A stretch of DNA of 40,104 nucleotides, taken from Actinomycetota bacterium. GTDB lineage: Bacteria > Actinomycetota > Acidimicrobiia > Spongiisociales > UBA5794. Both the position numbers and the translations under genes were made by a program. Below are positions 19,080 through 37,184 of the stretch, piece by piece. How positions within the stretch are numbered: the first letter of the stretch is position 1; every line of letters starts with the position of its first letter. The stretch spans positions 1 through 40,104 of the forward strand of contig JBDLJV010000001.1 in assembly GCA_039714175.1 (NCBI GenBank), written 5' to 3'. The notes beneath the pieces were generated by a model. It had not been told where the DNA came from and searched no databases. It saw only the letters and a list, made by a program, of their open reading frames with translations.

Positions 19080-20167
19080 GATGTGTCCACCTCCACGACT
19101 TCTGCCAGGGCACCTTCTCCCGACGCATCATCAACCACAGGTTCCCGCACCTTGTGGTGGTACCTCCGGTAAGCCAGGACGCCGACGGTTACCAGGAGGA
19201 CCGTTGCCTCGATGACATCCCCCAGTTGCGACGGAACACCCAGGACACGACCGGCCGACCCAGCTCCAACATTGAGATCCGCAAGCAACAACGCCGCGAG
19301 CACAACCGTGGGCATCGCCAGGGCTCCGAGCGTCGCCACCACGATGCCCGTGTAGCCGAACCCTGCCGAGAGCCCGCTTGTGAGCCGGTACTGGATTCCG
19401 CTCACCTCGCTCGCTCCGGCAATCCCCGCAATGGCTCCACTCGTCAGAGCGACCGTTAGCAGCGTGCGTCCAACACTGATTCCGGCGAATCGAGCAGCGT
19501 TGGGCCCAGAGCCGACAGCACGTACCCGAAGACCCGCAACGGTTCGAGACAGCACGAACCACACCAGGGCCGCTATTGCCAACCCGATCAGGAAGCCGAG
19601 GTGGAGTCTCGATCTCGGGATCAGGATCGGAAACTGCGCTGACTCTGCGATCCGCTCGGACTCCGGGAAGCCAGTCTCGGGGTCTGCCCACGGTCCATTG
19701 AGAAGCGCCATCACAACCAGGAGTGCTACGGGATTCAGCAGCAGTGTTGTGACGACCTCATCGATTCCGAGTCTGACACGGAGCAGGGCGGGCACGAGTG
19801 CCCAGAGCGCTCCCGCCGCTGCGCCGGCAAGGACCACAGCGGGCAGAACGAGAAAGCGCGATTGATTTCCGGCAAGCATGCCGACTGCGGCACCGGCAAC
19901 AGCCCCCATGAGCAGTTGTCCCTCGGCACCGATGTTCCAGTACCCGGCGCGGAATGCCAACGCTACCGACACGCCGGTGAGAATCAACGGGATCGACGAG
20001 ACCAGTACTTCCTGAGCGGAGAATCGGGATGTCAGTGGTGATATGAGGAATTCGACATAGGCGGCGAATGGATTGGCGCCGGCCAACATGATGAACGGTG
20101 CCGTGATAACAAAGGTGCCCAATACGATGAGGCCTGCTGTCGTCGCTCCTCGTCTCCAATGTTCCAC
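19076..20167 (-). CDS. BMP-family ABC importer permease 1
   Basis: 363 aa polytopic, YufP/NupP-like. Confidence 0.85.
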   Translation of the reverse strand: MEHWRRGATTAGLIVLGTFVITAPFIMLAGANPFAAYVEFLISPLTSRFSAQEVLVSSIPLILTGVSVALAFRAGYWNIGAEGQLLMGAVAGAAVGMLAGNQSRFLVLPAVVLAGAAAGALWALVPALLRVRLGIDEVVTTLLLNPVALLVVMALLNGPWADPETGFPESERIAESAQFPILIPRSRLHLGFLIGLAIAALVWFVLSRTVAGLRVRAVGSGPNAARFAGISVGRTLLTVALTSGAIAGIAGASEVSGIQYRLTSGLSAGFGYTGIVVATLGALAMPTVVLAALLLADLNVGAGSAGRVLGVPSQLGDVIEATVLLVTVGVLAYRRYHHKVREPVVDDASGEGALAEVVEVDTS

Positions 20168-20168
20168 G

Positions 20169-21689: not shown

Positions 21690-21698
21690 TCGTCGAGA

Positions 21699-22736
21699 TC
21701 AGCCGCCGATTGATCCAGCGGGTTCTTCCTCGTTGATGTTCACCCGGAAGACACCACTCCTGATGTCTGCCTCTGTGGCCTCCACCATGTCGATGAGTGC
21801 TTGATCCACTCCTCCGGTCACGGACGTGTTGATCGGAGCCAGCGAGGCGCCTCCCTTGGCAAGCATGCTGAAGTCCTTGAGATCTTGTGCCGTATAGGCG
21901 CCAGCGGCTACCTGATCAATGACATAGGCCACTGTCGGCGCCATGTCCCAGACCACACTCGACACGACGCTCTCCGGAGCAAGCTCCTGCTGATCCGACA
22001 TGTTGCCGAATGAGAACGCGCCCTTCTCCTGGGCTGCCTCGATCACACCGAACCGTTCGGCGTAGAGCACATCCGCGCCTGCATCGATCTGGGCGAGAGC
22101 TGCTTCTTTGGCTGCTGCCGGATCAAACCAACTGTTGATGAACGTGACCTTCACTTCGACACTCTCGTTCGTCGACTGAGCACCAGCGACGAACGCGTTC
22201 GTGATGCGGTTGACCTCAGGAACCGGATGGCCCCCGACCACGCCAACGACGCCAGAAGTGGTGAGTCCGCCGGCGAGCATGCCAGCGAGATAGGCCGGCT
22301 CATGAATCCAGTTGTCAAACACTGAGAAGTTCGGATCTGCCGGTCCGCCGCCTGATCCGAAGACGAACGCTATGTCCGGGTATGCAGCAGCGACCCGCCG
22401 AACCGCATCCTCGTTCCCAAATGCATCACCGAAGATGATGTCGGGCTTGTCTTGCTCGGACACCTCGGTGAGGATCCGTTCCATGTCGCCCGAGTAGCCG
22501 ATGTCATCCGTGAACTCGTAGGTGATGTTCCCTGCTTCTTCCTCGGCAAGCAACGCGCGGTGGATGACCCCGTCCCACGGTTCTTCGATCTGGGTGGCGA
22601 AGGCGCCGAAGACAGAGATCGTTTCGCCGTCGGCCGCTTCCTCACCGGAATCACTGCTGCACGCAGCCGCAGCGAGTGTGGTGATCACCACCAGCAATAC
22701 CAAGAAGACTTTCGAACGGTAGGGCATCCTGCTCAT
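21699..22736 (-). CDS. BMP-family (Med/PnrA-like) substrate-binding lipoprotein
   Basis: 345 aa from the ATG at 22736, preceded by GAGGAGG. Lipobox LAAAAC. BMP-like core (GGHPVPEVNRITNAFVAGAQS...). N-terminal extension in the track ORF trimmed. Confidence 0.85.
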   Translation of the reverse strand: MSRMPYRSKVFLVLLVVITTLAAAACSSDSGEEAADGETISVFGAFATQIEEPWDGVIHRALLAEEEAGNITYEFTDDIGYSGDMERILTEVSEQDKPDIIFGDAFGNEDAVRRVAAAYPDIAFVFGSGGGPADPNFSVFDNWIHEPAYLAGMLAGGLTTSGVVGVVGGHPVPEVNRITNAFVAGAQSTNESVEVKVTFINSWFDPAAAKEAALAQIDAGADVLYAERFGVIEAAQEKGAFSFGNMSDQQELAPESVVSSVVWDMAPTVAYVIDQVAAGAYTAQDLKDFSMLAKGGASLAPINTSVTGGVDQALIDMVEATEADIRSGVFRVNINEEEPAGSIGG

Positions 22737-22850
22737 CGGCTCCTCCTCATGATCGGGATGGCTACGCGTCGCGGCGTTCTTCATCCACCCCGTTCCCGGC
22801 ATCGTACAAGAATCGGTGTGGCGATATCTATCAAAACCGACCGGGTTACG

Positions 22851-23170: not shown

Positions 23171-24406
23171 CTACTCGACGTCCGGAGCCATTGCGAATTC
23201 GTCCTCTTCTGCCGGTTCCGGCAGAATCAGATTGACGATCACGCCAACGACGGCGGCAAGTGCGAGACCCGAGATCGGCACATCACCGATGGCAAGGGTA
23301 TTGGTAAGACCGCTGACACCAAGACCGAACACGAGGATCAGTCCAACAACGATCATGTTGCGACTCTTCATGAAGTCGACCTGTGCGTTCACCAGTGTCC
23401 TCAAACCGACCGCTGCGATCATTCCGAAGAGAACGATCGACAGTCCGCCAAGTACTGGAACCGGTGTGGTCCTCAGGATGGCGGCCAGTTTCGGAATCAG
23501 GGCAAGCACGATTGCGAAACCCGCACCGATTCGGAGGATGAGCGGGTCGTACACCTTCGTGACGGCCAGCACGCCCGTGTTCTCCGAATACGTCGTGTTC
23601 GGTGGGCCACCGATCAGACCGGCGAACAGCGTCGCGATACCGTCGCCGAGGAGCGTTCGCTCCAGGCCGGGCTCCTCGAAGAAGTCCTTTCCGACAACAC
23701 TGCCGTTGGCCATGATGTCACCGACATGCTCGATCATGGTCACGAACGCGATCGGTGCGATGAGAGCAACCGGTGCCCATGAGATGTCTCCAAAGCCCCA
23801 TGTGAACTCGGGAAGACCGACCCACGCTGCCTCACCGACAGCAGCGAAGCTGAAGTCAGGGAAGAAGATTGCTCCGAGGATGTAGCCGACGACCGCTGCA
23901 GTGAGGATCGGCAGCATCCGGAACAAGCCTTTGAAGAACACCGCCGCAATGACCGCGGTCAGCATCGTGACGAGCGCCAACCACCAGGCACCCTCTGACA
24001 TATTGATGGCGATCGGCGCCAGCGTGATTCCGATGACGATGATGACCGGTCCGGTCACGATCGGCGGGAAAACTCGCTGGATCACTTCGTGACCGACTGC
24101 CGCCACAAGGAGGCTCATCGCGGTGTAGAGGACACCGGCGGCCATGATCCCGAGTCCGATTGCTGCCCACGTGTAGTCACGTTCGGTGGCGAGGATGATC
24201 GCTGGGATGAACGCAAATGACGAACCCAGGAATACCGGCACCATCCGCTTGGTCACAAGGTGGAACAGCAACGTACCAACTCCGGCGGCAAGCAATGCCA
24301 CCGACGGATTGAGTCCTGTCAACAACGGCACAAGGACCGTTGCTCCGAACATGGCCACGACGTGCTGCAAGCCCAGCACCGTCTTCTTTTGCATCGTCAT
24401 TTCCAT
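23171..24406 (-). CDS. NCS2-family uracil/xanthine permease (UraA/PyrP-like)
   Basis: 411 aa from MEMTMQKK, with SD GGAGAGG 8 nt upstream. N-terminal LGLQHVVAMFGATVLVPLLTG is the canonical NCS2 motif. Confidence 0.88.
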   Translation of the reverse strand: MEMTMQKKTVLGLQHVVAMFGATVLVPLLTGLNPSVALLAAGVGTLLFHLVTKRMVPVFLGSSFAFIPAIILATERDYTWAAIGLGIMAAGVLYTAMSLLVAAVGHEVIQRVFPPIVTGPVIIVIGITLAPIAINMSEGAWWLALVTMLTAVIAAVFFKGLFRMLPILTAAVVGYILGAIFFPDFSFAAVGEAAWVGLPEFTWGFGDISWAPVALIAPIAFVTMIEHVGDIMANGSVVGKDFFEEPGLERTLLGDGIATLFAGLIGGPPNTTYSENTGVLAVTKVYDPLILRIGAGFAIVLALIPKLAAILRTTPVPVLGGLSIVLFGMIAAVGLRTLVNAQVDFMKSRNMIVVGLILVFGLGVSGLTNTLAIGDVPISGLALAAVVGVIVNLILPEPAEEDEFAMAPDVE

Positions 24407-24623
24407 AGGGTTTTCCTCTCCCAATCGCGAAGAGAGCCACCCCAATCGAGGTGACTCCCTTTCCTATATGTCGAGCTTGTTGCCCGTACCTGACCCGTAC
24501 CGCTTCCGGTGGCGAAAACTGTCGCGGGCTTGTCATTGATTGATGGTGCAGCAAATAAGCAGCCACCCCCCCTTGTTGCGCTGCCCAGTCTTCGCTGGCT
24601 GCCATCAAGGTATGACAATTAGA

Positions 24624-24971
24624 TCATGCTCCTCTGAACACCATCCCGTAGTAGTTGTCGTACGTCTCTTCACGCACGATCTCGACGCTTCCTTTCACGG
24701 CCATGCCGGCCTTCGGTTCGTCGATGTCGAGTTGCCCCAACATCCGCATCCCGTTCTCCAGCTCGACAATACCAAGTCCGAGCGTCGGAACCTCGTACTG
24801 CGGCGGCAGGTTGTAGACCCGTGTGTAGGTCAACAGCTTGCCGTCCCGCGGAAGCGGAACCGTGTCGAACTCGAAGAAGTCGTTCTGCTTGCAGTTCTTG
24901 CACACCATCCGGAACGGGTAGTGCTCCGTGTCGCACAGGCGGCACTTGTAGGCGTAGATTTCCCGAGCCAT
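24624..24971 (-). CDS. DUF35 OB-fold / zinc-ribbon protein (thiolase-partner family)
   Basis: 115 aa. Cys4 ribbon CRLCDTEHYPFRMVCKNCK followed by an OB-fold-like C-terminus. Its start overlaps the thiolase-like stop (TGATG). Confidence 0.8.
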   Translation of the reverse strand: MAREIYAYKCRLCDTEHYPFRMVCKNCKQNDFFEFDTVPLPRDGKLLTYTRVYNLPPQYEVPTLGLGIVELENGMRMLGQLDIDEPKAGMAVKGSVEIVREETYDNYYGMVFRGA

Positions 24972-26146
24972 CAGGCCTCCTTCTCGAACACGAGACAAAC
25001 AACGTTGTTACCGAAGCCGCCGAAGTTGCAAGTGAATCCAACCTCTGCGTCCTCGACCTGGCGAGCTTCGCCGTCTCCACGCAGCTGGGTCACGATCTCC
25101 CATGCCTGCGCGATACCGGTCGCTCCGACCGGGTGACCGCGGCCCTTGAGACCTCCACCGACATTGATGGGGATCTTGCCACCGAGCGCTGTCTCGCCCT
25201 TCTCGAGAGCGATGTGTCCTTCGCCCTTGGGGAAGAACCCGACCTCTTCGCTCTCGACGATCTCGAGGATCGTGAACGCATCGTGGAGCTCGGCAACGTC
25301 GACGTCTTCTGGCGTCTTGCCCGCCATTGCGAACGCATCGGCTGCAGCCTTGCGAACCGCGAGAAGATCCGTCGGTTCCTCGCGTTCATGAACGGTATGG
25401 GTGTCAGTTGCCTGACCAACGCCGCTCAACTTGATCATCGGTCCACCGAGCTCCTTCGCCTTCTCTTCAGAAACGAGAATGATGGCTGCGCCACCGTCGG
25501 AGACCGGACAAGCATCGAAGAACCGCAGTGGCTCTGCGACGTACGGGTTGTTGGTCATCGCCTCAGGGGAATCAAGGATGCCCTCGAGGGATATCTCTTG
25601 CTGGAGATGTGCCCATTCGTTGTTGAGCGCAGCGTTCTGGTTCTTGACTCCAACCATCGCAAGGTGACGCTCGGTAACCCCGTACTTGTCCATGTAGAGA
25701 CGGGTGAACATCGCAGCGTGCGCCGGAAGTGTCACTCCGTAGATGTACTCGGCGATCGGATGGGTCAGCGTCGCGACGAAATCGGTCGCTTCGAGGCCGT
25801 TGACCTCGCGCATCCGCTCCACACCGGCCACAAGAACGACATCGTCCATTCCGGAAGCAACGGCCTGGTACCCAGCCTTGATCGCAGAGCCGCCAGAAGC
25901 CGGTCCATTCTCGATGGCCGCGGCACCAGCGGGAGTGAGGCTCAGGCTGTCCGCGACGGCACTCGCGAGTGCCGTCTGGTGATTGACCCTGGGGCTTCCC
26001 ATGTTGGCCACATAGACCTGGTCAACCTCTGTAATCCCTGCATCCTTGAGCGCCATCATTGACGCATAGGACGCGATCTCGGACAGCGCGAATTCCAACC
26101 GGGTGAAGGTCGTGATGCCAATACCGGCTACGTAGACGTCACGCAT
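24971..26146 (-). CDS. Thiolase-fold protein (SCP-x/archaeal type) apparently lacking the nucleophilic Cys
   Basis: 391 aa from MRDVYVAGIG. C-terminal thiolase motifs are present (ELHDAFT, GRGHPVGATG, CNFGGFG). The expected [E]xxCASGG nucleophile site reads ENGPASGG, and there is no Cys in the first ~230 aa. Confidence 0.8.
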   Translation of the reverse strand: MRDVYVAGIGITTFTRLEFALSEIASYASMMALKDAGITEVDQVYVANMGSPRVNHQTALASAVADSLSLTPAGAAAIENGPASGGSAIKAGYQAVASGMDDVVLVAGVERMREVNGLEATDFVATLTHPIAEYIYGVTLPAHAAMFTRLYMDKYGVTERHLAMVGVKNQNAALNNEWAHLQQEISLEGILDSPEAMTNNPYVAEPLRFFDACPVSDGGAAIILVSEEKAKELGGPMIKLSGVGQATDTHTVHEREEPTDLLAVRKAAADAFAMAGKTPEDVDVAELHDAFTILEIVESEEVGFFPKGEGHIALEKGETALGGKIPINVGGGLKGRGHPVGATGIAQAWEIVTQLRGDGEARQVEDAEVGFTCNFGGFGNNVVCLVFEKEA

Positions 26147-26897
26147 CCTGCAACCCCTCCTCCATCGCCCAACGCTGCACCATGAGAGCGGATGCGGTCG
26201 GGTCATACTGCGAGCGGGTCGCGGATAGCGGGTCAAGGGCAGGCGTCGGCGGATCCGACGGCGGAAGGATCGCTTCCATGGCCTTGTCGAGAATCTCCGG
26301 TGGAACCGGTCTCCGACCAACGACGAGGCTGGACCTCGCGGCGTCGAACAGCTCACGAGTCAACGCCCATGAGGGGACACCGCCGAGCTCGTGGGGAATC
26401 TCGAATCGCTTCTCGAGTTTGTACTCGATCATCCACCGGCGGAATCCGATCGGTGACTCGGCGACAATCAGGACCTCGTCATGACCGAGCACATCGAAGT
26501 GGTACTCCATCTTCGCCGCGAAGGCATGAGCGCCGATGCGCAGGCCGCGGCGCAGGGCCAGGGTGTGCAACGACAAGCCCAGGTTCGGAGTCACCTGGCG
26601 ACCATTGACAATGGCTGCCAGCTCTCCATCGACCTGCACGGCAAGGACGTACTGGTCCTGGAAACGGTACTGATAGTGAGACAGCAGCTCCGCGTAGACA
26701 CGCGATGCGACGACGTCGTAGTAGTCACGCTCCACGTGTAGCAGCGGCTCGACGTGCTTCAGCAGATCCGGGATCTCATCCCGGTCGACGGCACGAACCA
26801 CGGCTGCCTCACCGCTGGCGAGCAGCATGTACTTCGGTTCGTACGGCGCCATCTCCGAATCGATGGGCCGAAGAATCTTTTCTAGATCAACGGACAT
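26139..26897 (-). CDS. Hypothetical protein, operon-embedded (weak GNAT-like segment)
   Basis: 252 aa with coding-like composition. Starts 2 nt after the CoxL-like stop and has an 8-nt overlap with the thiolase-like start. Only a weak LRRGLRIGAHAF motif-A-like stretch; no family recognised. Confidence 0.65.
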   Translation of the reverse strand: MSVDLEKILRPIDSEMAPYEPKYMLLASGEAAVVRAVDRDEIPDLLKHVEPLLHVERDYYDVVASRVYAELLSHYQYRFQDQYVLAVQVDGELAAIVNGRQVTPNLGLSLHTLALRRGLRIGAHAFAAKMEYHFDVLGHDEVLIVAESPIGFRRWMIEYKLEKRFEIPHELGGVPSWALTRELFDAARSSLVVGRRPVPPEILDKAMEAILPPSDPPTPALDPLSATRSQYDPTASALMVQRWAMEEGLQDA

Positions 26898-26899
26898 TC

Positions 26900-29296
26900 T
26901 CAGTTCGCTCCTTCTGTTGTCTTGGATTTCTCAAGGATCGCCATCGCGACCTTCTCCTGTGTGATCGGCATCGACTTGATGCGGACCCCTAGTGCGTTGT
27001 AAACGGCGTTGGCAATCACCGGTGCAGCTCCGATCATCGTGTGCTCACCCACGCCCCTGGCTCCGAACGGGCCATCGGGCTGTGGCACCTCGACGATGAT
27101 CGGGATGATCTCGTCGGGGATGTCGAAGGCCGTCGGGATCTTGTAGTCGGTGAACGTCGGGTTCATCATCTTCCCGTTCTCGTCGAAGCGCATGTCTTCG
27201 TACAGAACGGTTGCAAGACCCTGGACGAGGCCGCCGGTGATCTGACCGTTCACGAGGTCCGGGTTGATGGCCCGGCCGGCGTCGACGGCCAGCGCTGCCT
27301 TGCGCACCCAGATACGACCTGTGTCCGTGTCGATCTCAAGAACAACACCAGTTGCCCCAACCGTGTAATGCACGTTGGGATGGCCTCCCTGGCCGGTCTC
27401 CGGATCGCTGATCGCGTTCGTGAACTCGGGCATGAACTTGCCGCTGGCAATGATTGGCCCACCGCGCCAGGTTCCTTCCTCGGTCTGGATGCCGTCGATG
27501 ACGAATTCACGCAACGGCTTCGAGAAACTGGCATCGGTTCGACACTTGACTGCTTCGTCCTCGAGGTACAACGAATCATCCTCGAAGCCGTACACCTCGT
27601 GAATGACGTCGAAGATCTTGCCTCTCGCCTCGATGGCTGCCTTCTCGACCGCCAGTCCCGAACTCCATGTGACGTGGCTGGCAACGGTCTGCCATTCGTA
27701 GGGGTTCCGGTCGGTGTCCGGTGTCTCCACCCGGATCTTGTTCACGGGGACGGTGAGGATCTCGCTCGCGATCTGCGCCATGACGGTGAGGTATCCCTGA
27801 CCGAGCTCCATGCCGGACACGGTGATGTTGATGCTGCCGTCCTCGTTGAACTTGAGGAACGAGGCCGATGAGGCGTTCGGCGGCATCGCCGGCGCCTTCC
27901 AGAACAGGGCAAGACCCTTGCCGATCACGGTGTTCGGGTTGTCGGAGGTTTCCTCGACACCCCAGTCGATGGCCGCAGCGGTCTTGTCGATCGCCTCGAT
28001 CATGCCGGACGGATTCATGTGAGCTCCATAGGCGAGCTCGTCACCCTCAACGATCGCGTTCTTGCGTCGGAAATCGACCGGGTCCATCCCGATTGCCTCG
28101 GCGATTCGATCCATGTGTGACTCAAGCCCGAAATGGAATTCGGAGTACCCGAAGCCACGGTACGGACCACCCGGGGGGAGATTCGTGTAGATGCACAGCG
28201 AGTCATTGGTGATGTTGGGCACACGGTACGGGCCGGTGGCCGACAGGCCAGCGGCGTTGACGACGTTGGCGCCGTACTCGACATATGCCCCGGCATCCCA
28301 GTAGAGCTTGTGCTCAACGGCCGTTAGTGTGCCGTCGTTCATGACACCGACCTTGAGCTCGGCGACGACGCCCTGGCGCTGATAGGTGTTGTAGAACTCC
28401 TGCTCCCTGGTCCAGCGCAGCTTGACCGGCCGGCCCTTCACGAGCGTCGCCATGGCAGCACCGAGGATCTCCATGGAGACACCGGCTTTCCCGCCGAATC
28501 CACCGCCGACGTACGGCGTGATCACGCGAACGTCCTTGTGGGTGAAGCCCAGAGGTGCGAGCGCTTCGGCAAACAGGTGGCGCTGCGTATGCGGTGATTG
28601 GGATGCAGTCCAGACCGTGAGCCGATCTGACTGATCGAGTCGGCTGACCGTCACGTGCGGTTCGATGGCGCAGTGCGCGTAGCGCGGCACGTGGTAGGTG
28701 TCTTCGAGCACGTAGTCGGCCTCGGCGAAGGCCTTCTCAGTGTCGCCCTTCCGGATCTTCCTCCAGTGGGCGATGTTCGTGTCGTCCTGTGGGAAGAACC
28801 AGGGGACATGGACATACTCATCGAGGTCGGGATGGACCAGTTCGGCACCGTCGGCGACTGCACTCCTCGGGTCGAGAAGCGGCTCCAGGACCTCGTACTC
28901 GACCTCAATGAGCTTGGCTGCGTGCACAGCGTCGCGATGGCTCCTCGCGATGACACCAGCCACTTGCTCGCCCACGAAACGGACGTGGTTCTGAGCGAAG
29001 ATGTAGCGATCCTCCATGTACATGCCGAACTTGTATGGGAAGTCCGCGCCGGTGGCAACCCGCACAACGCCCGCTGCCGCCTCGGCCTTGGACGTGTCGA
29101 TGGAGACGATCTTCGCGTAGGCGTGAGGGCTCTCGACGATGGCAGCGTGCAGCAACCCGGGCCCAAAATCGATATCGTCGACGAATTGCGCGGCACCGCT
29201 GATCTTGTCGAGACCGTCGATCCTGACGGCCGGCTTGCCGACTGTCTTGAGATCGTCGGTGCTCTTTTCGACCTCGAAGGGATACTCGGTCGTCAT
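26900..29296 (-). CDS. XDH/aldehyde-oxidase-family molybdopterin-binding large subunit (CoxL-like); candidate uracil/thymine dehydrogenase
   Basis: 798 aa from MTTEYPF. VGGGFGGK motif and GVGE catalytic-Glu context (ARGVGEHTMIGAAPVIANAVYNALG). ATGA overlap with the FeS subunit gene. The substrate assignment is inference from context. Confidence 0.88.
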   Translation of the reverse strand: MTTEYPFEVEKSTDDLKTVGKPAVRIDGLDKISGAAQFVDDIDFGPGLLHAAIVESPHAYAKIVSIDTSKAEAAAGVVRVATGADFPYKFGMYMEDRYIFAQNHVRFVGEQVAGVIARSHRDAVHAAKLIEVEYEVLEPLLDPRSAVADGAELVHPDLDEYVHVPWFFPQDDTNIAHWRKIRKGDTEKAFAEADYVLEDTYHVPRYAHCAIEPHVTVSRLDQSDRLTVWTASQSPHTQRHLFAEALAPLGFTHKDVRVITPYVGGGFGGKAGVSMEILGAAMATLVKGRPVKLRWTREQEFYNTYQRQGVVAELKVGVMNDGTLTAVEHKLYWDAGAYVEYGANVVNAAGLSATGPYRVPNITNDSLCIYTNLPPGGPYRGFGYSEFHFGLESHMDRIAEAIGMDPVDFRRKNAIVEGDELAYGAHMNPSGMIEAIDKTAAAIDWGVEETSDNPNTVIGKGLALFWKAPAMPPNASSASFLKFNEDGSINITVSGMELGQGYLTVMAQIASEILTVPVNKIRVETPDTDRNPYEWQTVASHVTWSSGLAVEKAAIEARGKIFDVIHEVYGFEDDSLYLEDEAVKCRTDASFSKPLREFVIDGIQTEEGTWRGGPIIASGKFMPEFTNAISDPETGQGGHPNVHYTVGATGVVLEIDTDTGRIWVRKAALAVDAGRAINPDLVNGQITGGLVQGLATVLYEDMRFDENGKMMNPTFTDYKIPTAFDIPDEIIPIIVEVPQPDGPFGARGVGEHTMIGAAPVIANAVYNALGVRIKSMPITQEKVAMAILEKSKTTEGAN

Positions 29297-29760
29297 TCGG
29301 AACCCTCCTTGCCAGCCGCAAGCACGGCATCGATGATCGGCTCGTACCCGGTGCAGCGGCAGAGATTGCCTGCAAGCGCTTCCTGTACGTCGTGGCGAGT
29401 CGGATCGGGGTTGTTCTCCAGCAACTCGGTGGCAGACAGGACGATGCCCGGGGCACAGAACCCGCATTGGAACGAGTTGTTCTCGATGAACAGGTTCTGG
29501 AGTTCGCTGAGGCCCTCGTAGCTGATGCCTTCCACCGTGGTCACCTCGCGACCATCAGCTTCCACGGCGAGCACGAGACAACTGCGCACGGAGCGGCCGT
29601 CGAGGACGACAGTGCACGAACCACAGTCGCCACGCTCGCACCCGATCTTCGGACTCTTCGTTCCGATCCGCTCCCTGAGCACGTCGAGCAACGTGTCCGC
29701 CGGGGCAACGTCGAGGCCCCAGTCTTCACCATTGACTTTGATGTTGAGATTCATCGTCAT
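29293..29760 (-). CDS. (2Fe-2S)-binding small subunit of XDH-family dehydrogenase (CoxS-like)
   Basis: About 155 aa. Plant-type cluster CERGDCGSCTV and a second cluster QCGFCAPG...CRCTGY. Start is 29760 or 29754. Confidence 0.9.
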   Translation of the reverse strand: MTMNLNIKVNGEDWGLDVAPADTLLDVLRERIGTKSPKIGCERGDCGSCTVVLDGRSVRSCLVLAVEADGREVTTVEGISYEGLSELQNLFIENNSFQCGFCAPGIVLSATELLENNPDPTRHDVQEALAGNLCRCTGYEPIIDAVLAAGKEGSE

Positions 29761-29764
29761 CCTC

Positions 29765-30649
29765 TCAGACAAGCCGTGTGCCGTAGTCGGGACCCTTGCC
29801 GGCAAGTCTCTCGGTCGCTGCTACCAATCCGCGCCCCAGCATCACTTCGGTCATGTGGTTGCGATACTCCGCTGACGCTCGCATATCGGTGATCGGACTG
29901 ATCTCGTCACGGACCATCGCTACAGCCTCGGCGATGAGGTCACCGTCGAGCGACTTGCCTCGGAGAGTGTCCTCGATGCGAGCGGAACGGATCGGTGTGG
30001 GGGCGACGGCACCGAAAGCAATGCGGTACTCGTTGTCCGGGTAGGCAAGTATGCCCACCGAAGCCTGGGCCAGGTCTTCGCCTCCGTAGCGCATGAGCTT
30101 GACATAGACCCCGCCGTGTGAGCCGAGGTCGATGGTGAGATGCGAAACGATCTCGTCCTCCGACAAAGCGGTCTCGCGCAGGCCCACGAACCAGTCCTTG
30201 ATATCGACGCTGCGGGCACCGTCGGGTCCGATGAGATGCACCACTGTGTCATAGACGAGCAGCACAGGTCCGGCATCACATGAAGGGACTGCCGAGCAGA
30301 TGTTGCCGACCACAGTTGCCCGGTTCCTGATTCCACCGGAGGCCACAGTGTCGGCCATCTCTGCCAGAAGCGGGGCATGTTCGTTGACGATCTCGGATTC
30401 GATGATGTCGGTGAACGTCACCAGTGAACCGATGTGAAGGGTGTCACCATCCATCGTGAGATCGTTGAGCCCCGGCACATTCTTGATATCGACAACAAGA
30501 TCCGGGGCGATGGCATCGTCGCGCATCCACGCCACGAGATCGGTGCCACCAGCAAGGATCTGCGCGGAACCGGTGTGGTCCGAGAGGATCCCGATGGCCT
30601 CCTCCAGCGTGTCGGGACGCTGATACTCGAAGTTACGGGCGATCACCAT
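29765..30649 (-). CDS. FAD-binding medium subunit of XDH-family dehydrogenase (CoxM-like)
   Basis: 294 aa. N-terminal FEYQRP...ILAGGTDL FAD-binding PCMH motif. SD GGAGG upstream. Confidence 0.9.
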   Translation of the reverse strand: MVIARNFEYQRPDTLEEAIGILSDHTGSAQILAGGTDLVAWMRDDAIAPDLVVDIKNVPGLNDLTMDGDTLHIGSLVTFTDIIESEIVNEHAPLLAEMADTVASGGIRNRATVVGNICSAVPSCDAGPVLLVYDTVVHLIGPDGARSVDIKDWFVGLRETALSEDEIVSHLTIDLGSHGGVYVKLMRYGGEDLAQASVGILAYPDNEYRIAFGAVAPTPIRSARIEDTLRGKSLDGDLIAEAVAMVRDEISPITDMRASAEYRNHMTEVMLGRGLVAATERLAGKGPDYGTRLV

Positions 30650-30746: not shown

Positions 30747-32153
30747 TCATTGCAGCGTCTCCGCCAGCGCATTGACTCCATCCACGAAACACTCCATGGG
30801 TGCCTCGACCAGACCCGCGCCGACCATGCCGGTGCCCGGGACCTTGCCGGCAACACCGGTGTTGATCTGCGGCCGAACGCCGGCCCGCACGACCCTTGTG
30901 GCATCGATACCAACCGGTGTCCCACGGAACTCGAGCATCGGGATCTGATAGGCCGGGTGCTCGGCCATCGTGATCTCGTACATTGCGAGCGTCCTGGTCA
31001 CGGCTCCAGCGGCCGTTCCACCGACGAACCCCACAATTGCGGGTGCTGCAGCCATTGCGAGGCCTCCAAGACCAACCGTCTCGGTGATCGTCGAGTCTCC
31101 TATGTCCGGACTGGCGTCATCTTCGGTGAAGGATCCGAGGTAGAGACCGTCAACCGGCGGGGCAGGGGCGATGAACCAGCGATCCCCCGTTCCGGAGAGC
31201 CGGACTCCGAAGTCGGTACCGTTGCGGGCCATCACCGTGACGAGGCTCGACCCGGCCACTCCGGACGCGGCATCGGATCCAAGCTTGCCAGAGGCCATGA
31301 CAAGGTTGAGCATGAAGTGGTCGTTGCCATCGATGAAGTCGTACACGGCCCGGCGTTGGCCGAGCGGTGCGTCGGCTCCATCGATGAGTGCTCCGCTGAT
31401 CTCGCGAAGGAAGAGCGATGTCACCGCTCGGTTTCGGTTGTGTCCGTCATCGCCCATCTGAAGCGCCTGGGCGATCAACGACTGGAGATCTATCGGTCCG
31501 GTGCTCTTGAGGGTGGCTGCGAGCACCGGACCGAGAACCTCATCCATCCAATGGAGCCGATCGATAGCTTCGGGAGCGAAGGCGCCATATCGAAGCACCT
31601 TCCCGAGTCCTTCGTTCAATGTTGAGTAGGACACGCCGTCTCCGGCGGCGTCCTTGACGACCGCAATCGGCATCGACGGCGATGTCACCCCAGCCATCGG
31701 GCCGACGGCGCCGTGATGGTGGCAAGGGGATAGGTCGATGAGGCCGTCTGCGGCCTTCGCCGCGGCGTCGTCGGGATCATCTGCAAGTCCCTCGTAGAGC
31801 ATCGCCCCGATGATCGCTCCCCTCATCGGGCCGCTTGCCCGTTCCCACGTCAATGGCGGACCGGCGTGGAGGAAGGTCCGCTCCGTCATTGAGGGGAACA
31901 CGTCACGGGCCACGCTGACATCAACGAGCTGTGGCCGCACGGCCAGCATGCGCTTGATCGCGACCTCGTTCGCATCCCGCATTCGGTCATCTGCGAACAA
32001 GATTGCGAGAGCGTCTTCGCTTCCGGCGGCTGGTGGACGCCAGTCGGCTCGCTCGACAGCGGAGCCCTGTTGCTCGATCGACGTGGCAAGCATGTCGGTA
32101 CCTGCGGTCGCGACCACCGGTTCCGTGTCGAGCAGTTGTCCGAGATCGCTCAT
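30747..32153 (-). CDS. DUF1116 protein (YlbE/AllG-like)
   Basis: 468 aa from MSDLGQ. ATGA overlap with the FdrA-like stop. SPCHHHGAVGPMAG segment and its position next to FdrA and DUF2877 match the ylbE family. Confidence 0.75.
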   Translation of the reverse strand: MSDLGQLLDTEPVVATAGTDMLATSIEQQGSAVERADWRPPAAGSEDALAILFADDRMRDANEVAIKRMLAVRPQLVDVSVARDVFPSMTERTFLHAGPPLTWERASGPMRGAIIGAMLYEGLADDPDDAAAKAADGLIDLSPCHHHGAVGPMAGVTSPSMPIAVVKDAAGDGVSYSTLNEGLGKVLRYGAFAPEAIDRLHWMDEVLGPVLAATLKSTGPIDLQSLIAQALQMGDDGHNRNRAVTSLFLREISGALIDGADAPLGQRRAVYDFIDGNDHFMLNLVMASGKLGSDAASGVAGSSLVTVMARNGTDFGVRLSGTGDRWFIAPAPPVDGLYLGSFTEDDASPDIGDSTITETVGLGGLAMAAAPAIVGFVGGTAAGAVTRTLAMYEITMAEHPAYQIPMLEFRGTPVGIDATRVVRAGVRPQINTGVAGKVPGTGMVGAGLVEAPMECFVDGVNALAETLQ

Positions 32154-33580
32154 GATGAAGTCCTTGTCGTTGCCAGGCGTGCTGCGTACAAGGCAGCCTC
32201 CGCGTTGGACAGGTGCACAGATGCACCAGCGTCGTTGAGGGCCTTTGCCTGGGTGTCGCGTCCCTGCGGATCTCCGCTCGTCCCACACAGTGAAACGACG
32301 ACGGCCACTCCGGAGTCGACAACGCGCTCGACGATGGGGGCGAGTTCGGCAGCCGGATTGGCATTGGCGCCATAGCCGAGGACAACGTCCATGAGGACCA
32401 CGCCGACCGATTCGTCGTGGGCGACGGCTGCGAGTCGCTCGACCCGCACGGTCTGGTCGATCATCGGATGGGCTCTTCCCTGCGTGTATTCATCATCGCC
32501 GTAGTCGATGAAGGTGTGTCCCTCGTCTTCCTCGCGGGTTCCGATCTCGCCGAGCTGCGGACCAGCCACATGACGCGCTTCGGAACGCAGCGTGCCGCCG
32601 GAGAACAGTCCACGGACGAATCCGGAACGGTGCTCCTGTTGGGGGGCTTCCCATGAACCGTACGTCGGCCTGGCCTGACCGAGAGCATCCAGCACCTCGC
32701 CTGCGCCTTCCTCGAGCGTGGTCTCCCCCATGAATGTGATCACGACAGGTGTGGCGCACTCTGCGGCGACGCGGCGCACCTGGTCTGCAACCGGTGCGGC
32801 CGGAGGCTTCGAGATGACAACAATCAGCTCGGTTCCCGGATCAGCGTCGAGCGCTTCGAGTGCTTGGAGCGTCGAGATGGCCCCAACGTCTTCGGAGAGA
32901 TCATGGCTTCCCGTGCCGAGCGCATGTCGAACACCAACGCCGGCGTCATCGAGCAACGCGCACATCTCCTGTATGCCGGTACCTGATGCGCCCACCATGC
33001 TCACCGGACCTGGCTGCACTGCATTGGCAAATCCGAGACCGATGCCGCTCACGATCGTCGTGCCGCAATCGGGGCCCATCACGAGGAGATTGTGTTGCGC
33101 GCCGTATCGCTTGAGTGCGACTTCCTGGGAAATGGGGACGTTGTCGCTGAAGATCATCACATGGAGACCATCCTGGAGTGCCTCCATGGCTTCGACATAG
33201 GCGTGCTCCCCGGGAACCGACAGCAGAGCGACGTTGGCGCCGTTGATCTCGGCTGCAGTGCCCACAGTCTTCGCATCGGGTGCGTTCATCCCGCCCGAGC
33301 GGACCATCTTCGGGGTGAGCGCTTCTTCGAGAACCGCATGCGCATGAGCGATTGCCTCTTCGTTCTCGGCATGGACAGCGAGCAGCAGGTCGTTGGGTCC
33401 AACGCCGACGACAGAATCCATGTCGAAGTCCATGTCGGCAAGCAGGCTGAGATTGAGCTCAGTGGCCATCGCCACCAGAGCGTCGGTGACGCCTTCAACA
33501 CCTTGGAGTGCCTTGCTTGCTTGCATCAGCCGAACCGAATCGTGATAGCGGCCGGGGTGTACCTCAACTCGCGAGATCAT
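32150..33580 (-). CDS. FdrA-family protein (AllF-like; succinyl-CoA-synthetase-alpha/CoA-ligase fold)
   Basis: 476 aa. N-terminus MISRVEVHPGRYHDSVRLMQASK parallels the E. coli FdrA N-terminus. Rossmann/CoA-binding-like repeats. ATGA overlap with the DUF2877 stop. Confidence 0.8.
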   Translation of the reverse strand: MISRVEVHPGRYHDSVRLMQASKALQGVEGVTDALVAMATELNLSLLADMDFDMDSVVGVGPNDLLLAVHAENEEAIAHAHAVLEEALTPKMVRSGGMNAPDAKTVGTAAEINGANVALLSVPGEHAYVEAMEALQDGLHVMIFSDNVPISQEVALKRYGAQHNLLVMGPDCGTTIVSGIGLGFANAVQPGPVSMVGASGTGIQEMCALLDDAGVGVRHALGTGSHDLSEDVGAISTLQALEALDADPGTELIVVISKPPAAPVADQVRRVAAECATPVVITFMGETTLEEGAGEVLDALGQARPTYGSWEAPQQEHRSGFVRGLFSGGTLRSEARHVAGPQLGEIGTREEDEGHTFIDYGDDEYTQGRAHPMIDQTVRVERLAAVAHDESVGVVLMDVVLGYGANANPAAELAPIVERVVDSGVAVVVSLCGTSGDPQGRDTQAKALNDAGASVHLSNAEAALYAARLATTRTSS

Positions 33581-34425
33581 CGTGCGCCTCCAGTGAGAGA
33601 TGAAACAGATCGACCACCGAGGACGATCCCTGCGGCGAGCGCAGGTCCCGAGCTGTGTCCGACGGCAAGTAGATCGCGATGGCTGGCCCGGATGTCTCCG
33701 CGCCCGGCAACAGCTCGGAGGAACGCCGCGGCGGGGAGTGCCACGTTCCCCTTCAGGGCGTGGTCGATCAGGGCGGCCGAGAACGTGGTGGTTCGCTGTC
33801 GTGCCAGCGACGAGATTTCGAGAGAGGTCGCATCGAGCGTCTGCATAAGTCGACGATCTCCGACCGCTTCGCCGAACAACCGCAGGGCAGAGAGAACTCC
33901 GGCCAGGTAATCGTCACCTTCGGGTGTCAGACCTTCACCTCTGCCAATGAGCATCGATGCAGCCGCAACAAGACCGGCTGGTGAGTCTGTGGCCGGGATG
34001 GCGTCGAGTGGCATGCCATCCACGGTTGATGGCAGGTCGACGATCGACTCGGCAATCCGGGCTCGATCGAGAGTCGGTAACGCTGGTCGGGGATCCCACC
34101 ACCGGACGGCGTCGATCGTCAGCCCGTCGAGCATGACCTGACCGATTCCGACGGTGGCCGGTGAGCCATGCTCGATCGAACCGAAGACATTGGCCTCGGC
34201 GTCGGCGGCCACCTCAACACTGTTCGGAAGCCGGGTCGCATCCCGGGTCGATACGACGACGACACCACCGCCGTCCAGGAGGAGCCAGACGGCGTGGCTC
34301 GCCGATCCCACCACCGTTGCCGATGCGTGTGAATCAGACAGCTCAGAGCGGAGCGCGGCACTCGCCACCCCCGGCATCCGAACGGATACCGGGGACGATC
34401 GAGTTTCGACCGCTCTGACGGTCAT
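33577..34425 (-). CDS. DUF2877 protein (YlbF/AllH-like)
   Basis: 282 aa. Family-typical GLTPEGDDYLAG and VGHSSGPALAAG motifs. Starts 6 nt after the amidohydrolase stop. Confidence 0.75.
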   Translation of the reverse strand: MTVRAVETRSSPVSVRMPGVASAALRSELSDSHASATVVGSASHAVWLLLDGGGVVVVSTRDATRLPNSVEVAADAEANVFGSIEHGSPATVGIGQVMLDGLTIDAVRWWDPRPALPTLDRARIAESIVDLPSTVDGMPLDAIPATDSPAGLVAAASMLIGRGEGLTPEGDDYLAGVLSALRLFGEAVGDRRLMQTLDATSLEISSLARQRTTTFSAALIDHALKGNVALPAAAFLRAVAGRGDIRASHRDLLAVGHSSGPALAAGIVLGGRSVSSLTGGAR

Positions 34426-34431
34426 CTACTG

Positions 34432-35529
34432 CTATCCGAGATCGACGATCGCGGCAACCGGACCGCCACCGCTCGGGCCTTGGTGGATTGCTGCAACAGA
34501 CACGAACACAGCGGCATCGTCGATCGCGTTGGCTACGACGCCACCCACGGCGGCTTTGATGTGGCGATGGTGGTGCACGTCGGAATCGTCCAGGGCGACC
34601 TGCCGGCGGCCCCTCAGGCGTGAGGTCGGATCAGCTTCGCACTTGACGAAGACGTTCACGACCTTGCCATCGAGATCATCGGAGTTCGCCCGATCCGGAA
34701 GATCGAGACCTGCCGAGCGGATCGCCCGGTATACGCCTTCGCGGTCGAGAGCATCGTTCATCACATCGTGACCGATGCGATACCGGCCACCGGCACCGCG
34801 TACGTTGCCGACGACGACGGTCTGTGCTCGGTCAAGTTCGACACCCGACGAGCAGGACGCTACCGAGGAGAACAGGCTGAGATCGTGACCGATCTGTTCG
34901 GCTGTCGGCATCTCGATCTCGCCGAGGGCTACGGCGATGCCGAGCCCGGATGTGCCGTTCGAGATGTTCATCGACTCGAGCGGATCCTCGGTGTAGACGG
35001 TGTGACCGCGTTCCTTGGCATCGTTGATCGTATCCATGACGAGCAGCGGGGTCTTCGTCTGCACGTAGTGGACGTCAGCGGCATCTTCGATGCCTGCGGC
35101 TGCCATTGCGCGGCGGACTCCTTCGGCGACCTTGGCGACCATCGCCGGCCGTCCGATGTCCTCCGGCAGAATGACGTCGCTCATCGCGTAGCCAACAGCC
35201 AGGCGGGGTTCGTCGGATACAGGGCCGTCATCGGGAACGTTGGCAAAGACGGTGGCGTGCGGACACAGAATGCCGTCCGTGCCACCCGACCACACCATGG
35301 GAATGTCGTCAACCTCGGACTGCGGTCTCGTCCCCTTCTCCATCAGAACCTTGCGGAATGCCTGATCCGCGATGATCCTGGTGAAGTCGTTGACACCACC
35401 GTTGCCTTCGGTCTTGCCAACTACGGCGACAACGCCATCGGCGTCGAAGACTCCCTCGTCGATCAGTGCTGCGAGCCCGGATGCATCTCCGACGCTCTCA
35501 AGTACGACCTTGCGTACGTCAACGGCCAT
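34432..35529 (-). CDS. Ring-opening amidohydrolase, AtzD/TrzD/barbiturase family (barbiturase favoured by context)
   Basis: 365 aa from MAVDVRK, with SD GGAGG 7 nt upstream. Family motifs [58 protein letters not shown] and HQGPSGGGP. Confidence 0.88.
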
Positions 35530-35582
35530 GGTCCTGCCTCCTACTGTCCGGATGGAATCGAGAATATCCCAATCGAACCTCG
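35530..35582. promoter_or_regulatory. 53-bp divergent control region (amidohydrolase operon / pucR-like gene) carrying CCCAATCGA and GGAATCGA motifs
   Basis: CCCAATCGA at 35568-35576 and AATCGA at 35556-35561. The same 9-mer recurs in the uracil permease 5' UTR (24441-24449; variant at 24420-24428). Confidence 0.4.
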
Positions 35583-37184
35583 ATGGCATTAGGGTATGTT
35601 GCCGTGACTTCACACAGTTCATTGTCATATTCCCACAAGGGAGAAGAGCTCACTCTCCGCGATGTGCTGAAGACTCCTGGCTTCCAGGGCACTGAGGTGT
35701 TGGCGGGTGCCGGCGGGCTTGACAGAGTCGTCTCCTCGATCAATGTCATGGAGAATCCGGACATCATCCCGTGGGTCAAGAATCGGGAATTGTTGATCAC
35801 GGTGGGCTACTCACTTGCCGGGCGGACGAAGGATCTGGCAGCGCTCGTCGAAGACCTGGCTGATCAAGACCTGGCAGGGTTCGGGGTCAAGCTCGGCCCC
35901 TATGTGACCGAGGTCGGCAAGGACGCACTCGATGCTGCGAATCATCGCGATTTCCCGATCCTCTCACTTCCCCCAACAGTGTCTTTCGACGATCTGATCG
36001 CTGACGTCTACGGCGCTCGGGACTCTCTCCTCCTTGGAGGCCTCCACCGACGAAGTGACCGGGAGCACGAACTCATTGGAGTCGCCCTCGAAGGCGGGGG
36101 CCCCGGCGAAGTTGCCGCCAGGCTTGCTCAGCTCGTGAACTGTGAGGTCCTCATCCTGGGTGCGGGCAATGAGATCATGTCGCACCACCCGGACCCCGAG
36201 CATGTCGCCAGGGAGGACCACGATCCGCGCACCGATCCGCGCTTCGAGGAGGCTGCTGCTGCACCCATCGTGTTCGGCTCGACCTACGTCGGCCAGCTCT
36301 ATGTGCTCCCGAACGAAGGATCGTCTGAGGAGTTCTCCCCCGGCCTTGTCCCGGCATGCGCGCAGATCATGGCTCTCGCAGCCTCAAGGGAGATCGCTGT
36401 CGCCTCGGTGGACCGCCAGTTTCGGGATGAGCTCCTCGAGCAGATCCTTCGCAATCGTCTCGATCGCCGAGAGGTGGATCGCCGCTGCCAAGCGCTTGAG
36501 TGGGCGATCCGTTTCCCAGCGGTCATCGTGACCCTTACGCCCGCGGATCTCGACTCCACCCCACATCTCGAACGGGCGCGAGACGCCCTGGGCTGGTCGC
36601 TTCGAGCCAGGGGCCTCCATGCCCCCCACGCGATCATCAACGGCAACGTCGTTGCCGTCGTTGGGAGTGGCGATCTGCCGGATGCCGATCCGGAGGCAAC
36701 AGCAGTGTCGGCAGCGGCCGAGGTCATCTCCCGATCGGTACCGGGAACGTGGTCCGGTGGCGTCTCAGGCGGCGTAGGGAACCCAACGGAGCTGCAGAGA
36801 GGTTGGGACCAGGCACAGACGGCGACCCGAGTGACGCAAGCAATCAAGGGAGTTGGCGTCGTCGGCAAGTTCACGGAGCTCGGTGTCTTCCGGATTCTCG
36901 CCGAGGTTGACCGGGGCGTGTTGGCGGGTTTCGCAAAGGAGACACTCGGCGAACTGCACGAACCCACGGAGAGCCGTGCCGAACTCAGACGTACGCTCGC
37001 AGTTCTTCTGGCCACGAATCTGAATGTGGCAGAGACAGCCAGGCAATTGCACTACCACTACAACTCGGTTCGCTACAGGATGAACCAACTCGAGCAACTG
37101 CTCGGGCCGTTCTCCACCGATCCGACACGCCGGCTCGAACTCCACATCGCTCTCCTCATCGGCGACATGGATCCAAACGACTGA
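35583..37184 (+). CDS. PucR-family transcriptional regulator
   Basis: About 533 aa. N-terminal PucR-like [39 protein letters not shown] and C-terminal Puc[33 protein letters not shown]. The start is uncertain: ATG 35583 has no SD, and GTG 35604 or TTG 35622 are alternatives. Confidence 0.85.

Follow-up and report, generated by a model that had tools for sequence, protein, structure and literature searches.

The oxidative pathway of pyrimidine catabolism was described in the 1950s and, to our knowledge, its genes past barbiturase have never been firmly assigned. As summarised in PMC3758960 from Soong et al. (2001/2002), the pathway of Rhodococcus erythropolis consists of uracil/thymine dehydrogenase, barbiturase and ureidomalonase, and ureidomalonate, a barbiturase product reported to be stable, is hydrolysed to urea and malonate. 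A second described system is AllFGH of Escherichia coli. According to Kim & Kim (2024; PMC11326118), this activity was identified in 2024 and experimentally shown to be an oxamate carbamoyltransferase (oxalurate + Pi <-> oxamate + carbamoyl phosphate); it requires all three genes allF, allG and allH and has AllK as its kinase partner. Here we analyse one contig from a metagenome-assembled Acidimicrobiia (Actinomycetota) genome (JBDLJV010000001.1), complete at 40,104 bp, referred to as the window and the frame for all coordinates, in which three genes of the FdrA, DUF1116 and DUF2877 families directly follow a barbiturase gene. This triad is a member of the AllFGH-type carbamoyltransferase family, and we consider it rather likely that it cleaves ureidomalonate phosphorolytically to carbamoyl phosphate and malonamate.

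The interval 30747-34425 consists of three open reading frames (ORFs), all on the minus strand. In 5'->3' order they encode an AllH-like DUF2877 subunit (34425..33577, 282 aa; Pfam PF11392, E 6.9e-22), an AllF-like FdrA subunit resembling the alpha subunit of succinyl-CoA synthetase (33580..32150, 476 aa; PF00549, Ligase_CoA, and PF02629, CoA_binding) and an AllG-like DUF1116 subunit (32153..30747, 468 aa; PF06545, E 1.3e-88). The Pfam matches of all three proteins exceed the gathering score; with the NCBIfam FdrA model PRK06091, the AllF-like protein scores 405 bits, slightly below the cutoff of 433. An earlier sequence-only reading of this DNA had named the three families, and that gene content stood. 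The gene order did not: it is DUF2877-FdrA-DUF1116, as in yahEFG of E. coli, and not fdrA-ylbE-ylbF, with every gene on the minus strand. The tight coupling that the same reading had described can be read directly from the sequence. The barbiturase stop codon (TAG, 34434-34432) is separated from the AllH start codon (ATG at 34425) by a 6-nt spacer, cagtag, and the AllH/AllF and AllF/AllG junctions are ATGA overlaps at 33580-33577 and 32153-32150, respectively. The mechanically called AllG ORF reaches 32288, and it is the in-frame ATG at 32153 that yields the second overlap.

Window AllF shares 39% identity with E. coli AllF and 35% with the paralogue YahF. Window AllG is 44% identical to E. 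coli AllG and 43%, over its full length, to YahG; the YahG alignment covers an N-terminal extension of ~55 aa that is missing from E. coli AllG. Similarity of the AllH-like protein to E. coli AllH amounts to 32% identity across the C-terminal 113 aa, and its match to YahE is confined to a 42-residue motif segment. Two motifs, GxGxGLTPxxDD and a C-terminal G(H/S)(S/T)SG, are invariant in 18 AllH, YahE and DUF2877 sequences including the window protein, where they occupy G161-D172 and G256-G260. Among known structures, AllF matches 3DMY (FdrA) with 245 bits and AllG matches 3CLQ (DUF1116) with 376 bits; a profile built on the 18 AllH sequences retrieved no Protein Data Bank (PDB) relative, and a single-sequence AlphaFold model of AllH (pLDDT 38) was unusable. 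When FdrA-type proteins were aligned to E. coli SucD with MAFFT, the segment xRGLFxGGT fell opposite GHAGAIIAGG with no aligned His, in an alignment that is unreliable at 22% identity.

The gene upstream of the triad (35529..34432, minus strand; PF09663, E 7e-143) encodes a ring-opening amidohydrolase of the AtzD/TrzD 'Toblerone' type. Its ORF extends to 35628, the likely start being the Met at 35529. The protein matches the R. erythropolis barbiturase (PDB 5HWE) with 525 bits and ~70% identity, whereas its best cyanuric acid hydrolase (CAH) match reaches only 317 bits, which upholds the barbiturase assignment made from the sequence alone. CAH Arg188 is replaced in the barbiturase subgroup (PMC4051656). 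The residue found there is Asn for the window protein, 5HWE and every aligned barbiturase-clade protein, and Arg for TrzD and a Citrobacter plasmid homologue. Judged by identity and by this residue, the upstream gene is a barbiturase orthologue. We considered an identity as cyanuric acid hydrolase since the window protein reaches 452 bits, above the cutoff of 360, with the NCBIfam equivalog NF052395 ('cyanuric acid amidohydrolase'); overall identity and the Arg188 position ruled it out. NF052395 thus does not separate barbiturases from cyanuric acid hydrolases, and automatic annotation will mislabel such genes. Many barbiturase-clade proteins are labelled 'cyanuric acid amidohydrolase' in JGI and UniRef, which looks like systematic misannotation. 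One 490-aa product (P0219) contains AA_kinase and barbiturase domains, which could stem from fusion or from faulty gene calling.

We collected 80 loci, one genome per GTDB species, whose barbiturases are 71-95% identical to that of the window; the closest relatives are Acidimicrobiia metagenome-assembled genomes (MAGs). Among the 59 loci with at least 4.5 kb of sequence downstream of barbiturase, 50 encode AllF and AllG within 5 kb on the same strand, and shorter contigs are consistent with this linkage as far as they extend. The linkage spans Acidimicrobiia, Nitriliruptoria, Streptomycetaceae/Streptosporangiaceae and Myxococcota, and the arrangement of barbiturase with the triad is not due to chance. 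In Haliangium (Myxococcota) the order is barbiturase-AllF-AllG; in Egicoccus and another Actinomycetota MAG, a permease and a carbamate kinase gene stand between barbiturase and AllH-AllF(-AllG). In Embleya and Nonomuraea the sole AllG homologue that tblastn found in each record is 18 and 41 kb away from barbiturase, within an AllH-AllF-AllG block divergent from a PucR-permease-CoxMSL operon, to which Embleya adds CoxG and a terminal CN-hydrolase gene. Natural fusions of FdrA and DUF1116 of ~1000 aa (P0363, P0372 and P0382, one with an extra C-terminal cupin domain) indicate that AllF and AllG act as one functional unit. The DUF1116 family as a whole has 668 representatives at E<=1e-30 among clusters at 50% identity.

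A neighbour-joining tree was built on 14 AllG proteins of differing context. All barbiturase-associated ones, the window protein included, form a single clade in it (bootstrap 97). E. coli AllG clusters with the AllG of TrzD-type and plasmid-type loci (bootstrap 100), and YahG with one protein from Peptoclostridium and one from a metagenome (bootstrap 70). Identity is 58-66% among the barbiturase-associated proteins and 43-51% to every other triad. From this tree, the window triad is a barbiturase-specific subfamily of the AllFGH type and not an orthologue of E. coli AllFGH. The phylogenetic profile that the sequence-only reading had asked for thus ties the triad to barbiturase and not to allantoin genes, of which the 80 loci hold none.

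The gene that occupies the same slot in Rhodococcus bears on the role of the triad. Rhodococcus qingshengii, whose barbiturase shares 99% identity with the characterised enzyme, has a locus that reads UPRT | barbiturase-amidase (PF01425)-aminotransferase-permease-CoxM-CoxS-CoxL-CoxG-like, with a family-III CoA-transferase and a fused carboxyltransferase upstream. The amidase gene overlaps the barbiturase stop codon, the same position at which the triad starts in the window, and is a candidate for the hydrolytic ureidomalonase. An amidase of this type is absent from the window and from 80 of the 80 related loci, which is the pattern expected of non-orthologous replacement. The triad probably substitutes for a hydrolytic, urea-releasing ureidomalonase at the ureidomalonate-cleaving step, as had been supposed before this comparison was made.

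Taken together, the window would represent a ten-gene minus-strand operon for the oxidative catabolism of uracil or thymine. A three-subunit molybdenum (Mo) hydroxylase would form barbiturate from either pyrimidine; barbiturase would open the ring to give ureidomalonate (3-oxo-3-ureidopropanoate), a step strongly supported by orthology; and an AllH/AllF/AllG complex would use phosphate as the acceptor of the terminal carbamoyl group (ureidomalonate + Pi -> carbamoyl phosphate + malonamate). We propose the third step from the analogy with E. coli AllFGH and from the gene context. In related clusters, carbamate kinase would then convert carbamoyl phosphate and ADP to ATP, NH3 and CO2; a CN-hydrolase would convert malonamate to malonate and NH3; and a family-III CoA-transferase with a carboxyltransferase-type decarboxylase would lead from malonate through malonyl-CoA to acetyl-CoA. 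These completing genes are absent from the window-type cluster, so carbamoyl phosphate would have to go to a kinase encoded elsewhere or to biosynthesis. In window-type clusters the C3 fragment may be handled by a co-transcribed trio of a GNAT-like protein, a thiolase-like protein lacking the nucleophilic Cys and a DUF35 protein, a role proposed because the trio occupies the place of the CN-hydrolase. Alternatively, the trio may belong functionally to the window-type Mo hydroxylase.

The partners that are missing from the window do occur in its relatives, in keeping with the products predicted. Carbamate kinase genes adjoin barbiturase and/or the triad in 11 of the 80 loci; the proteins carry the motif ALGGNA...HGNGPQVG and exceed the cutoff of an NCBIfam carbamate kinase subfamily. 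The order is barbiturase-permease-carbamate kinase-AllH-AllF-AllG in L070, the same through AllF in L082, where the contig ends, and barbiturase-carbamate kinase-AllH-AllF-AllG in L078. Barbiturase is also paired with carbamate kinase in Nocardioides, Blastococcus and Embleya. A CN-hydrolase, the candidate malonamidase, is encoded in 10/80 loci, for example at L061:19291-20286. It closes a second cluster type of Acidimicrobiales, arranged as barbiturase-(carbamate kinase)-AllH-AllF-AllG-CoxMSL-CN-hydrolase, and is found again in Streptosporangiaceae and Embleya. The Embleya supercluster contains one candidate gene for each predicted step: the Mo hydroxylase would convert uracil to barbiturate, barbiturase would open the ring to ureidomalonate, the triad would turn ureidomalonate and Pi into carbamoyl phosphate and malonamate, carbamate kinase would derive ATP from carbamoyl phosphate, the CN-hydrolase would take malonamate to malonate, the CoA-transferase malonate to malonyl-CoA, and the carboxyltransferase malonyl-CoA to acetyl-CoA. 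As a prediction, phosphorolytic cleavage of ureidomalonate has good support from comparative genomics.

A recurrent HyuA-HyuB-NmrA-...-carbamate kinase-barbiturase block is shared by Nocardioides, Blastococcus, Embleya and related actinomycetes (L089, L095, L096, L097 and L083). HyuAB is of the ATP-dependent caprolactamase/oxoprolinase type, and genes for a CoA-transferase of family III and for a carboxyltransferase of fused AccD/AccA type lie alongside the block.

Several observations weigh against phosphorolytic cleavage by the triad. The kinetics quoted for E. coli AllFGH (PMC11326118) were reported with carbamoyl phosphate and oxamate as the substrates, and the Km for oxamate was 37 mM. 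AllH is missing from four loci with barbiturase-AllF-AllG (L035, L053, L055 and L074), and two others have barbiturase-AllH without AllF or AllG (L030 and L032, with CoxM directly after in L032). Pairs of carbamate kinase and barbiturase without a triad within 10 kb are found in Nocardioides, Blastococcus and Streptosporangiaceae, and such a pair in L097 lacks the triad while an amidase is present; the kinase therefore does not prove that carbamoyl phosphate comes from the triad. Neither carbamate kinase nor a malonamidase had been visible in the window on first reading, and tblastn and Pfam searches agreed, detecting no carbamate kinase, amidase-signature enzyme, CN-hydrolase or CoA-transferase in its 40 kb; none of these four was seen within 10 kb in window-type loci either. 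Finally, the window-type genes resembling CoA enzymes (GNAT, thiolase fold and DUF35), together with the CoA-binding-type domain of AllF, leave room for CoA-dependent chemistry. As to the loci without AllH or without AllF and AllG, they could reflect assembly artefacts, genes located elsewhere or a dispensable AllH.

CoA-dependent chemistry figures in the alternative that ranks highest, although we regard it as unlikely: the triad might cleave the other amide bond or use CoA, giving malonyl phosphate or malonyl-CoA plus urea, and the trio would process the CoA ester. AllF is indeed similar to succinyl-CoA synthetase alpha and has a CoA_binding domain, proteins of the GNAT fold, the thiolase fold and DUF35 are encoded in all window-type clusters and are coupled to AllH-AllF-AllG in the metagenomic locus L093, and the endpoint of the classical pathway is urea and malonate, as PMC3758960 summarises it. 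However, the sole characterised member of the family passes the carbamoyl group to phosphate, CoA not being mentioned in the part of PMC11326118 relied on here, and the recurrent neighbour of barbiturase and the triad is carbamate kinase, not urease or urea carboxylase. The triads of kinase-containing clusters are orthologous to that of the window and 58-60% identical to it. Moreover, the thiolase-like protein has no nucleophilic Cys, and the trio follows the type of Mo hydroxylase rather than the clade of the triad.

We give a slightly lower, likewise small, probability to the triad acting on another acylurea, such as acetylurea, the thymine-derived 5-methyl analogue or a compound of the allophanate/biuret type, as a generalist acylurea phosphorylase. 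Homologous triads adjoin TrzD (whose product is carboxybiuret/biuret), CAH-like genes and cysteine hydrolases of the BiuH/RutB type (see also PMC12625717), and since the window Mo hydroxylase is not of the Rhodococcus type, the starting substrate may differ. Nevertheless, barbiturase-associated triads form one specific clade whichever type of Mo hydroxylase is present, and ureidomalonate is the stable product of barbiturase as reported (PMC3758960). Least probable of all, and rejected because no allantoin genes are present, is that the triad is a true oxamate carbamoyltransferase or another purine-ureide enzyme brought near barbiturase by a shared PucR regulon and a xanthine dehydrogenase-like enzyme: the locus does contain a PucR regulator, a xanthine/uracil permease and a Mo enzyme whose best NCBIfam matches are XdhA/XdhB/XdhC-like (all below cutoff), but neither the window nor the 80 related loci hold homologues of allB/C/D/E (allantoinase, allantoate amidohydrolase, ureidoglycolate dehydrogenase and ureidoglycine hydrolase), the triad is coupled to barbiturase by 4-nt/6-nt junctions in a linkage kept in 50/59 loci, and the barbiturase-linked AllG clade stands apart from E. 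coli AllG.

The phosphorolytic reading of the window can be set beside triads found outside barbiturase loci. In Aminobacter sp. SR38 pSR8 (L085:9052-22864) and on a Klebsiella quasipneumoniae plasmid (L086), a TrzD identical to PDB 5T13 is encoded in a cluster with the order hypothetical gene-fdrA-DUF1116-trzD-arcC-amidohydrolase-BMP ABC transporter-DUF2877; atzF is also near this cluster on the Klebsiella plasmid. This composition suggests that cyanuric acid catabolism has a phosphorolytic branch which yields ATP. Dozens of Enterobacteriaceae plasmids carry an IS26-flanked cluster arranged as hypothetical gene-CAH-like-NCS2-DUF2877-fdrA-DUF1116-arcC-LysR, for example in Citrobacter freundii pE51_002 from a shower isolate (L087:10704-20782). 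These IS26-flanked clusters ride on conjugative plasmids of hospital and plumbing isolates, and their 411-aa hypothetical protein shares 36% identity with the one of 454 aa that heads the TrzD cluster. In Peptoclostridium and on E. coli IncF plasmids, a cysteine hydrolase gene precedes DUF2877-fdrA-DUF1116-arcC, with nucleobase permeases in addition, and in nitrifier MAGs allFGHK adjoins biuH/trtA (PMC12625717).

The metagenomic locus L093:10001-20756 (JGI metagenome 3300023283) is arranged as U252-thiolase-like-DUF35-AllH-AllF-AllG-cyclase (PF04199)-XdhC-CoxMSL, U252 being the GNAT-like member of the trio. Its AllH-AllF-AllG set, which belongs to the YahG clade, is translationally coupled to the trio, and its Mo hydroxylase is of the window type. 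A PF04199 cyclase of the arylformamidase/isatin-hydrolase family replaces barbiturase, none being visible on the contig, and a different cyclic amide may feed the same module.

The variety of these hydrolase neighbours suggests that the cassette converts an N-carbamoyl amide delivered by an upstream hydrolase to carbamoyl phosphate. As a tentative extension, for which we judge the chances to be below even, DUF2877-FdrA-DUF1116, usually with carbamate kinase, might be a general acylurea phosphorylase cassette behind many hydrolases, and the Acidimicrobiia trio a previously unknown complex. The hydrolases served may include barbiturase, TrzD, CAH-like enzymes, BiuH/RutB-type cysteine hydrolases and enzymes of the cyclase/isatin-hydrolase type; the trio would either act on malonamate or serve alongside a pyrimidine-oxidising Mo hydroxylase of a new type. 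If this is true, barbiturate, cyanuric acid and biuret-type compounds would be degraded without urease, and their ureido group would be kept as carbamoyl phosphate or ATP.

The remaining genes of the putative operon follow the triad on the minus strand. The FAD-binding subunit of the Mo hydroxylase (CoxM/XdhB-like; 29765..30649; PF00941 and PF03450) begins 97 nt past the AllG stop codon, has a ribosome-binding site and is syntenic in at least 28 related loci. It is followed by the [2Fe-2S] subunit (29293..29805; PF01799 and PF00111) and the molybdopterin-binding large subunit (26900..29467; PF02738, PF20256 and PF01315), both of uncertain start; the mechanically called ORF of the latter overlaps the [2Fe-2S] gene. 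The best NCBIfam matches of this enzyme are XdhA/XdhB/XdhC-like and all fall below cutoff; from its context, it is a candidate uracil-to-barbiturate dehydrogenase. Compared with the CoxL proteins of Rhodococcus (27%), Embleya and the second cluster type of Acidimicrobiales, which share 57-71% identity among themselves, its large subunit reaches an identity of only 27-30%. Two unrelated lineages of three-subunit Mo hydroxylase thus accompany barbiturase (30649..26900 in the window versus L088:15799-19867, L083:22657-26524 and L061:16335-18713), and the window type is always accompanied by the trio.

The first gene of the trio abuts the CoxL stop codon and encodes U252 (26139..26897, minus strand), a conserved 252-aa protein without Pfam or NCBIfam matches that has 3064 homologues, none of them named. 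An AlphaFold2 model (pLDDT 73) has GNATs as all of its top Foldseek matches in the PDB (RimJ, SpeG, PatZ and FdhC, E ~1e-5), and the predicted fold of U252 is accordingly that of an acyl-CoA N-acyltransferase. U252 was also compared with the small protein encoded after CoxL in Rhodococcus; the two show no similarity, and the Rhodococcus protein is CoxG-like. Next comes a thiolase-fold protein (24971..26146, minus strand) with thiolase domains and 272 bits to the archaeal-type thiolase 7YVY. Its active-site segment reads ENGPASG in place of EAACASG, with Pro in 27/27 aligned sequences (the window protein and 26 orthologues), and the missing nucleophilic Cys ruled it out as an active thiolase. 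The third gene, which has a TGATG overlap with the second and is syntenic in 27 loci, encodes a 115-aa DUF35/ChsH2-type protein with a zinc ribbon and an OB-fold (24624..24971, minus strand; PF01796, E 3.6e-8). The genes from U252 through DUF35 abut or overlap. The trio resembles known thiolase-DUF35 complexes (archaeal thiolase/HMGCS/DUF35 and Ltp2-ChsH2), differing from them in its GNAT partner and in having no thiolase chemistry.

After a gap of ~180 nt and in the same direction lies an NCS2 xanthine/uracil permease gene (23171..24445, minus strand; PF00860, E 1e-86) whose product is 32% identical to the permease of the Rhodococcus barbiturase cluster. Further along, a BMP/PnrA-type (nucleoside-type) ABC transporter with a binding protein, an ATPase and two permeases is encoded at 18174..22802 (minus strand; PF02608, PF00005 and PF02653 twice); the plasmid cluster with TrzD and the triad likewise contains a BMP-family ABC transporter. 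Divergent from the barbiturase operon is a PucR-family regulator gene of uncertain start (35466..37184, plus strand; PF07905, PF17853 and PF13556). PucR regulators also flank the clusters of Rhodococcus, Embleya, Nonomuraea and Peptoclostridium. Promoter-like matches in the window equal the shuffle expectation (2 versus 2.0), and terminator-like matches are about twice as frequent as in shuffled sequence (12 versus 6.3 ± 2.7), none of them marking an operon boundary. The rest of the contig, including 843..4298, 7050..8170 and 13416..16987, looks unrelated to the triad. It holds genes for a methionine synthase dependent on B12, for an ECF sigma factor together with an Ogt-like methyltransferase, for an ABC exporter (a pair) and for an FKBP isomerase and, downstream of PucR, those for an acyl-CoA dehydrogenase and a HAD hydrolase.

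The window locus and its relatives supply testable candidate genes for every step of oxidative pyrimidine catabolism and outline two alternative endings, one hydrolytic (amidase, to urea) and one phosphorolytic (triad, to carbamoyl phosphate). If the phosphorolytic route is true, ATP or a biosynthetic precursor would be recovered from the ureido group of the pyrimidine and its nitrogen assimilated without urease, by a route encoded in many uncultured Acidimicrobiia of environmental metagenomes. The AllFGH family would also gain a second substrate, and a basis would exist for annotating the proteins that currently carry the label 'acyl-CoA synthetase FdrA / DUF1116 / DUF2877'. The cassette beside TrzD suggests that a branch of cyanuric acid degradation has been overlooked, one of relevance to bioremediation and to hospital-water plasmids.

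The phosphorolysis logic proposed for the triad is familiar from the arginine and agmatine deiminase pathways, in which catabolic ornithine or putrescine transcarbamylase together with carbamate kinase phosphorolyses a ureido group to carbamoyl phosphate and yields ATP. Those enzymes have the fold of aspartate and ornithine transcarbamylases and act on N-carbamoyl amines, whereas the triad combines a succinyl-CoA synthetase alpha-like protein with DUF1116 and DUF2877 and would act on N-acylureas. With the Rhodococcus erythropolis pathway the window shares an orthologous barbiturase (70% identity), a three-subunit Mo hydroxylase encoded in the cluster, PucR and an NCS2 permease. It differs in having the triad where R. 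qingshengii has an amidase-signature gene after barbiturase, in a Mo-hydroxylase large subunit only 27% identical to that of Rhodococcus, and in its predicted products, carbamoyl phosphate and malonamate instead of urea and malonate.

Among loci that contain the triad, the plasmid clusters with TrzD or the IS26-flanked CAH-like gene likewise place a Toblerone-fold hydrolase beside FdrA, DUF1116 and DUF2877 and include a nucleobase-type transporter (BMP ABC or NCS2). Unlike the window, they have Arg at the CAH Arg188 position, always include carbamate kinase, lack a Mo hydroxylase and encode an AllG that groups with E. coli AllG. The E. coli cluster yahEFG-yahI-yahJ, an uncharacterised paralogue of allFGHK, has the DUF2877-FdrA-DUF1116 order of the window, a YahG that aligns with window AllG over its full length and an upstream-acting amidohydrolase encoded nearby. 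Its proteins are only 35-43% identical to those of the window and belong to a different clade; barbiturase is missing from the cluster, which includes a metallo-amidohydrolase and a carbamate kinase-like gene.

E. coli AllFGH itself consists of the same three families and catalyses the same type of reaction as that proposed here (N-carbamoyl amide + Pi -> carbamoyl phosphate + amide), with oxalurate and ureidomalonate differing by one methylene group. In contrast to E. coli, the window has the gene order H-F-G rather than F-G-H, an AllG of a separate clade with the N-terminal extension of ~55 aa, an AllF without the C-terminal ~60 aa, and neither allK nor allantoin genes, being coupled instead to barbiturase and a Mo hydroxylase. 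A full-text search found no literature linking FdrA, DUF1116 or DUF2877 to barbiturase, ureidomalonate or TrzD. Relative to E. coli AllFGH, the window triad is the same type of enzyme with a new predicted substrate and pathway, an expected extension of a recently characterised family.

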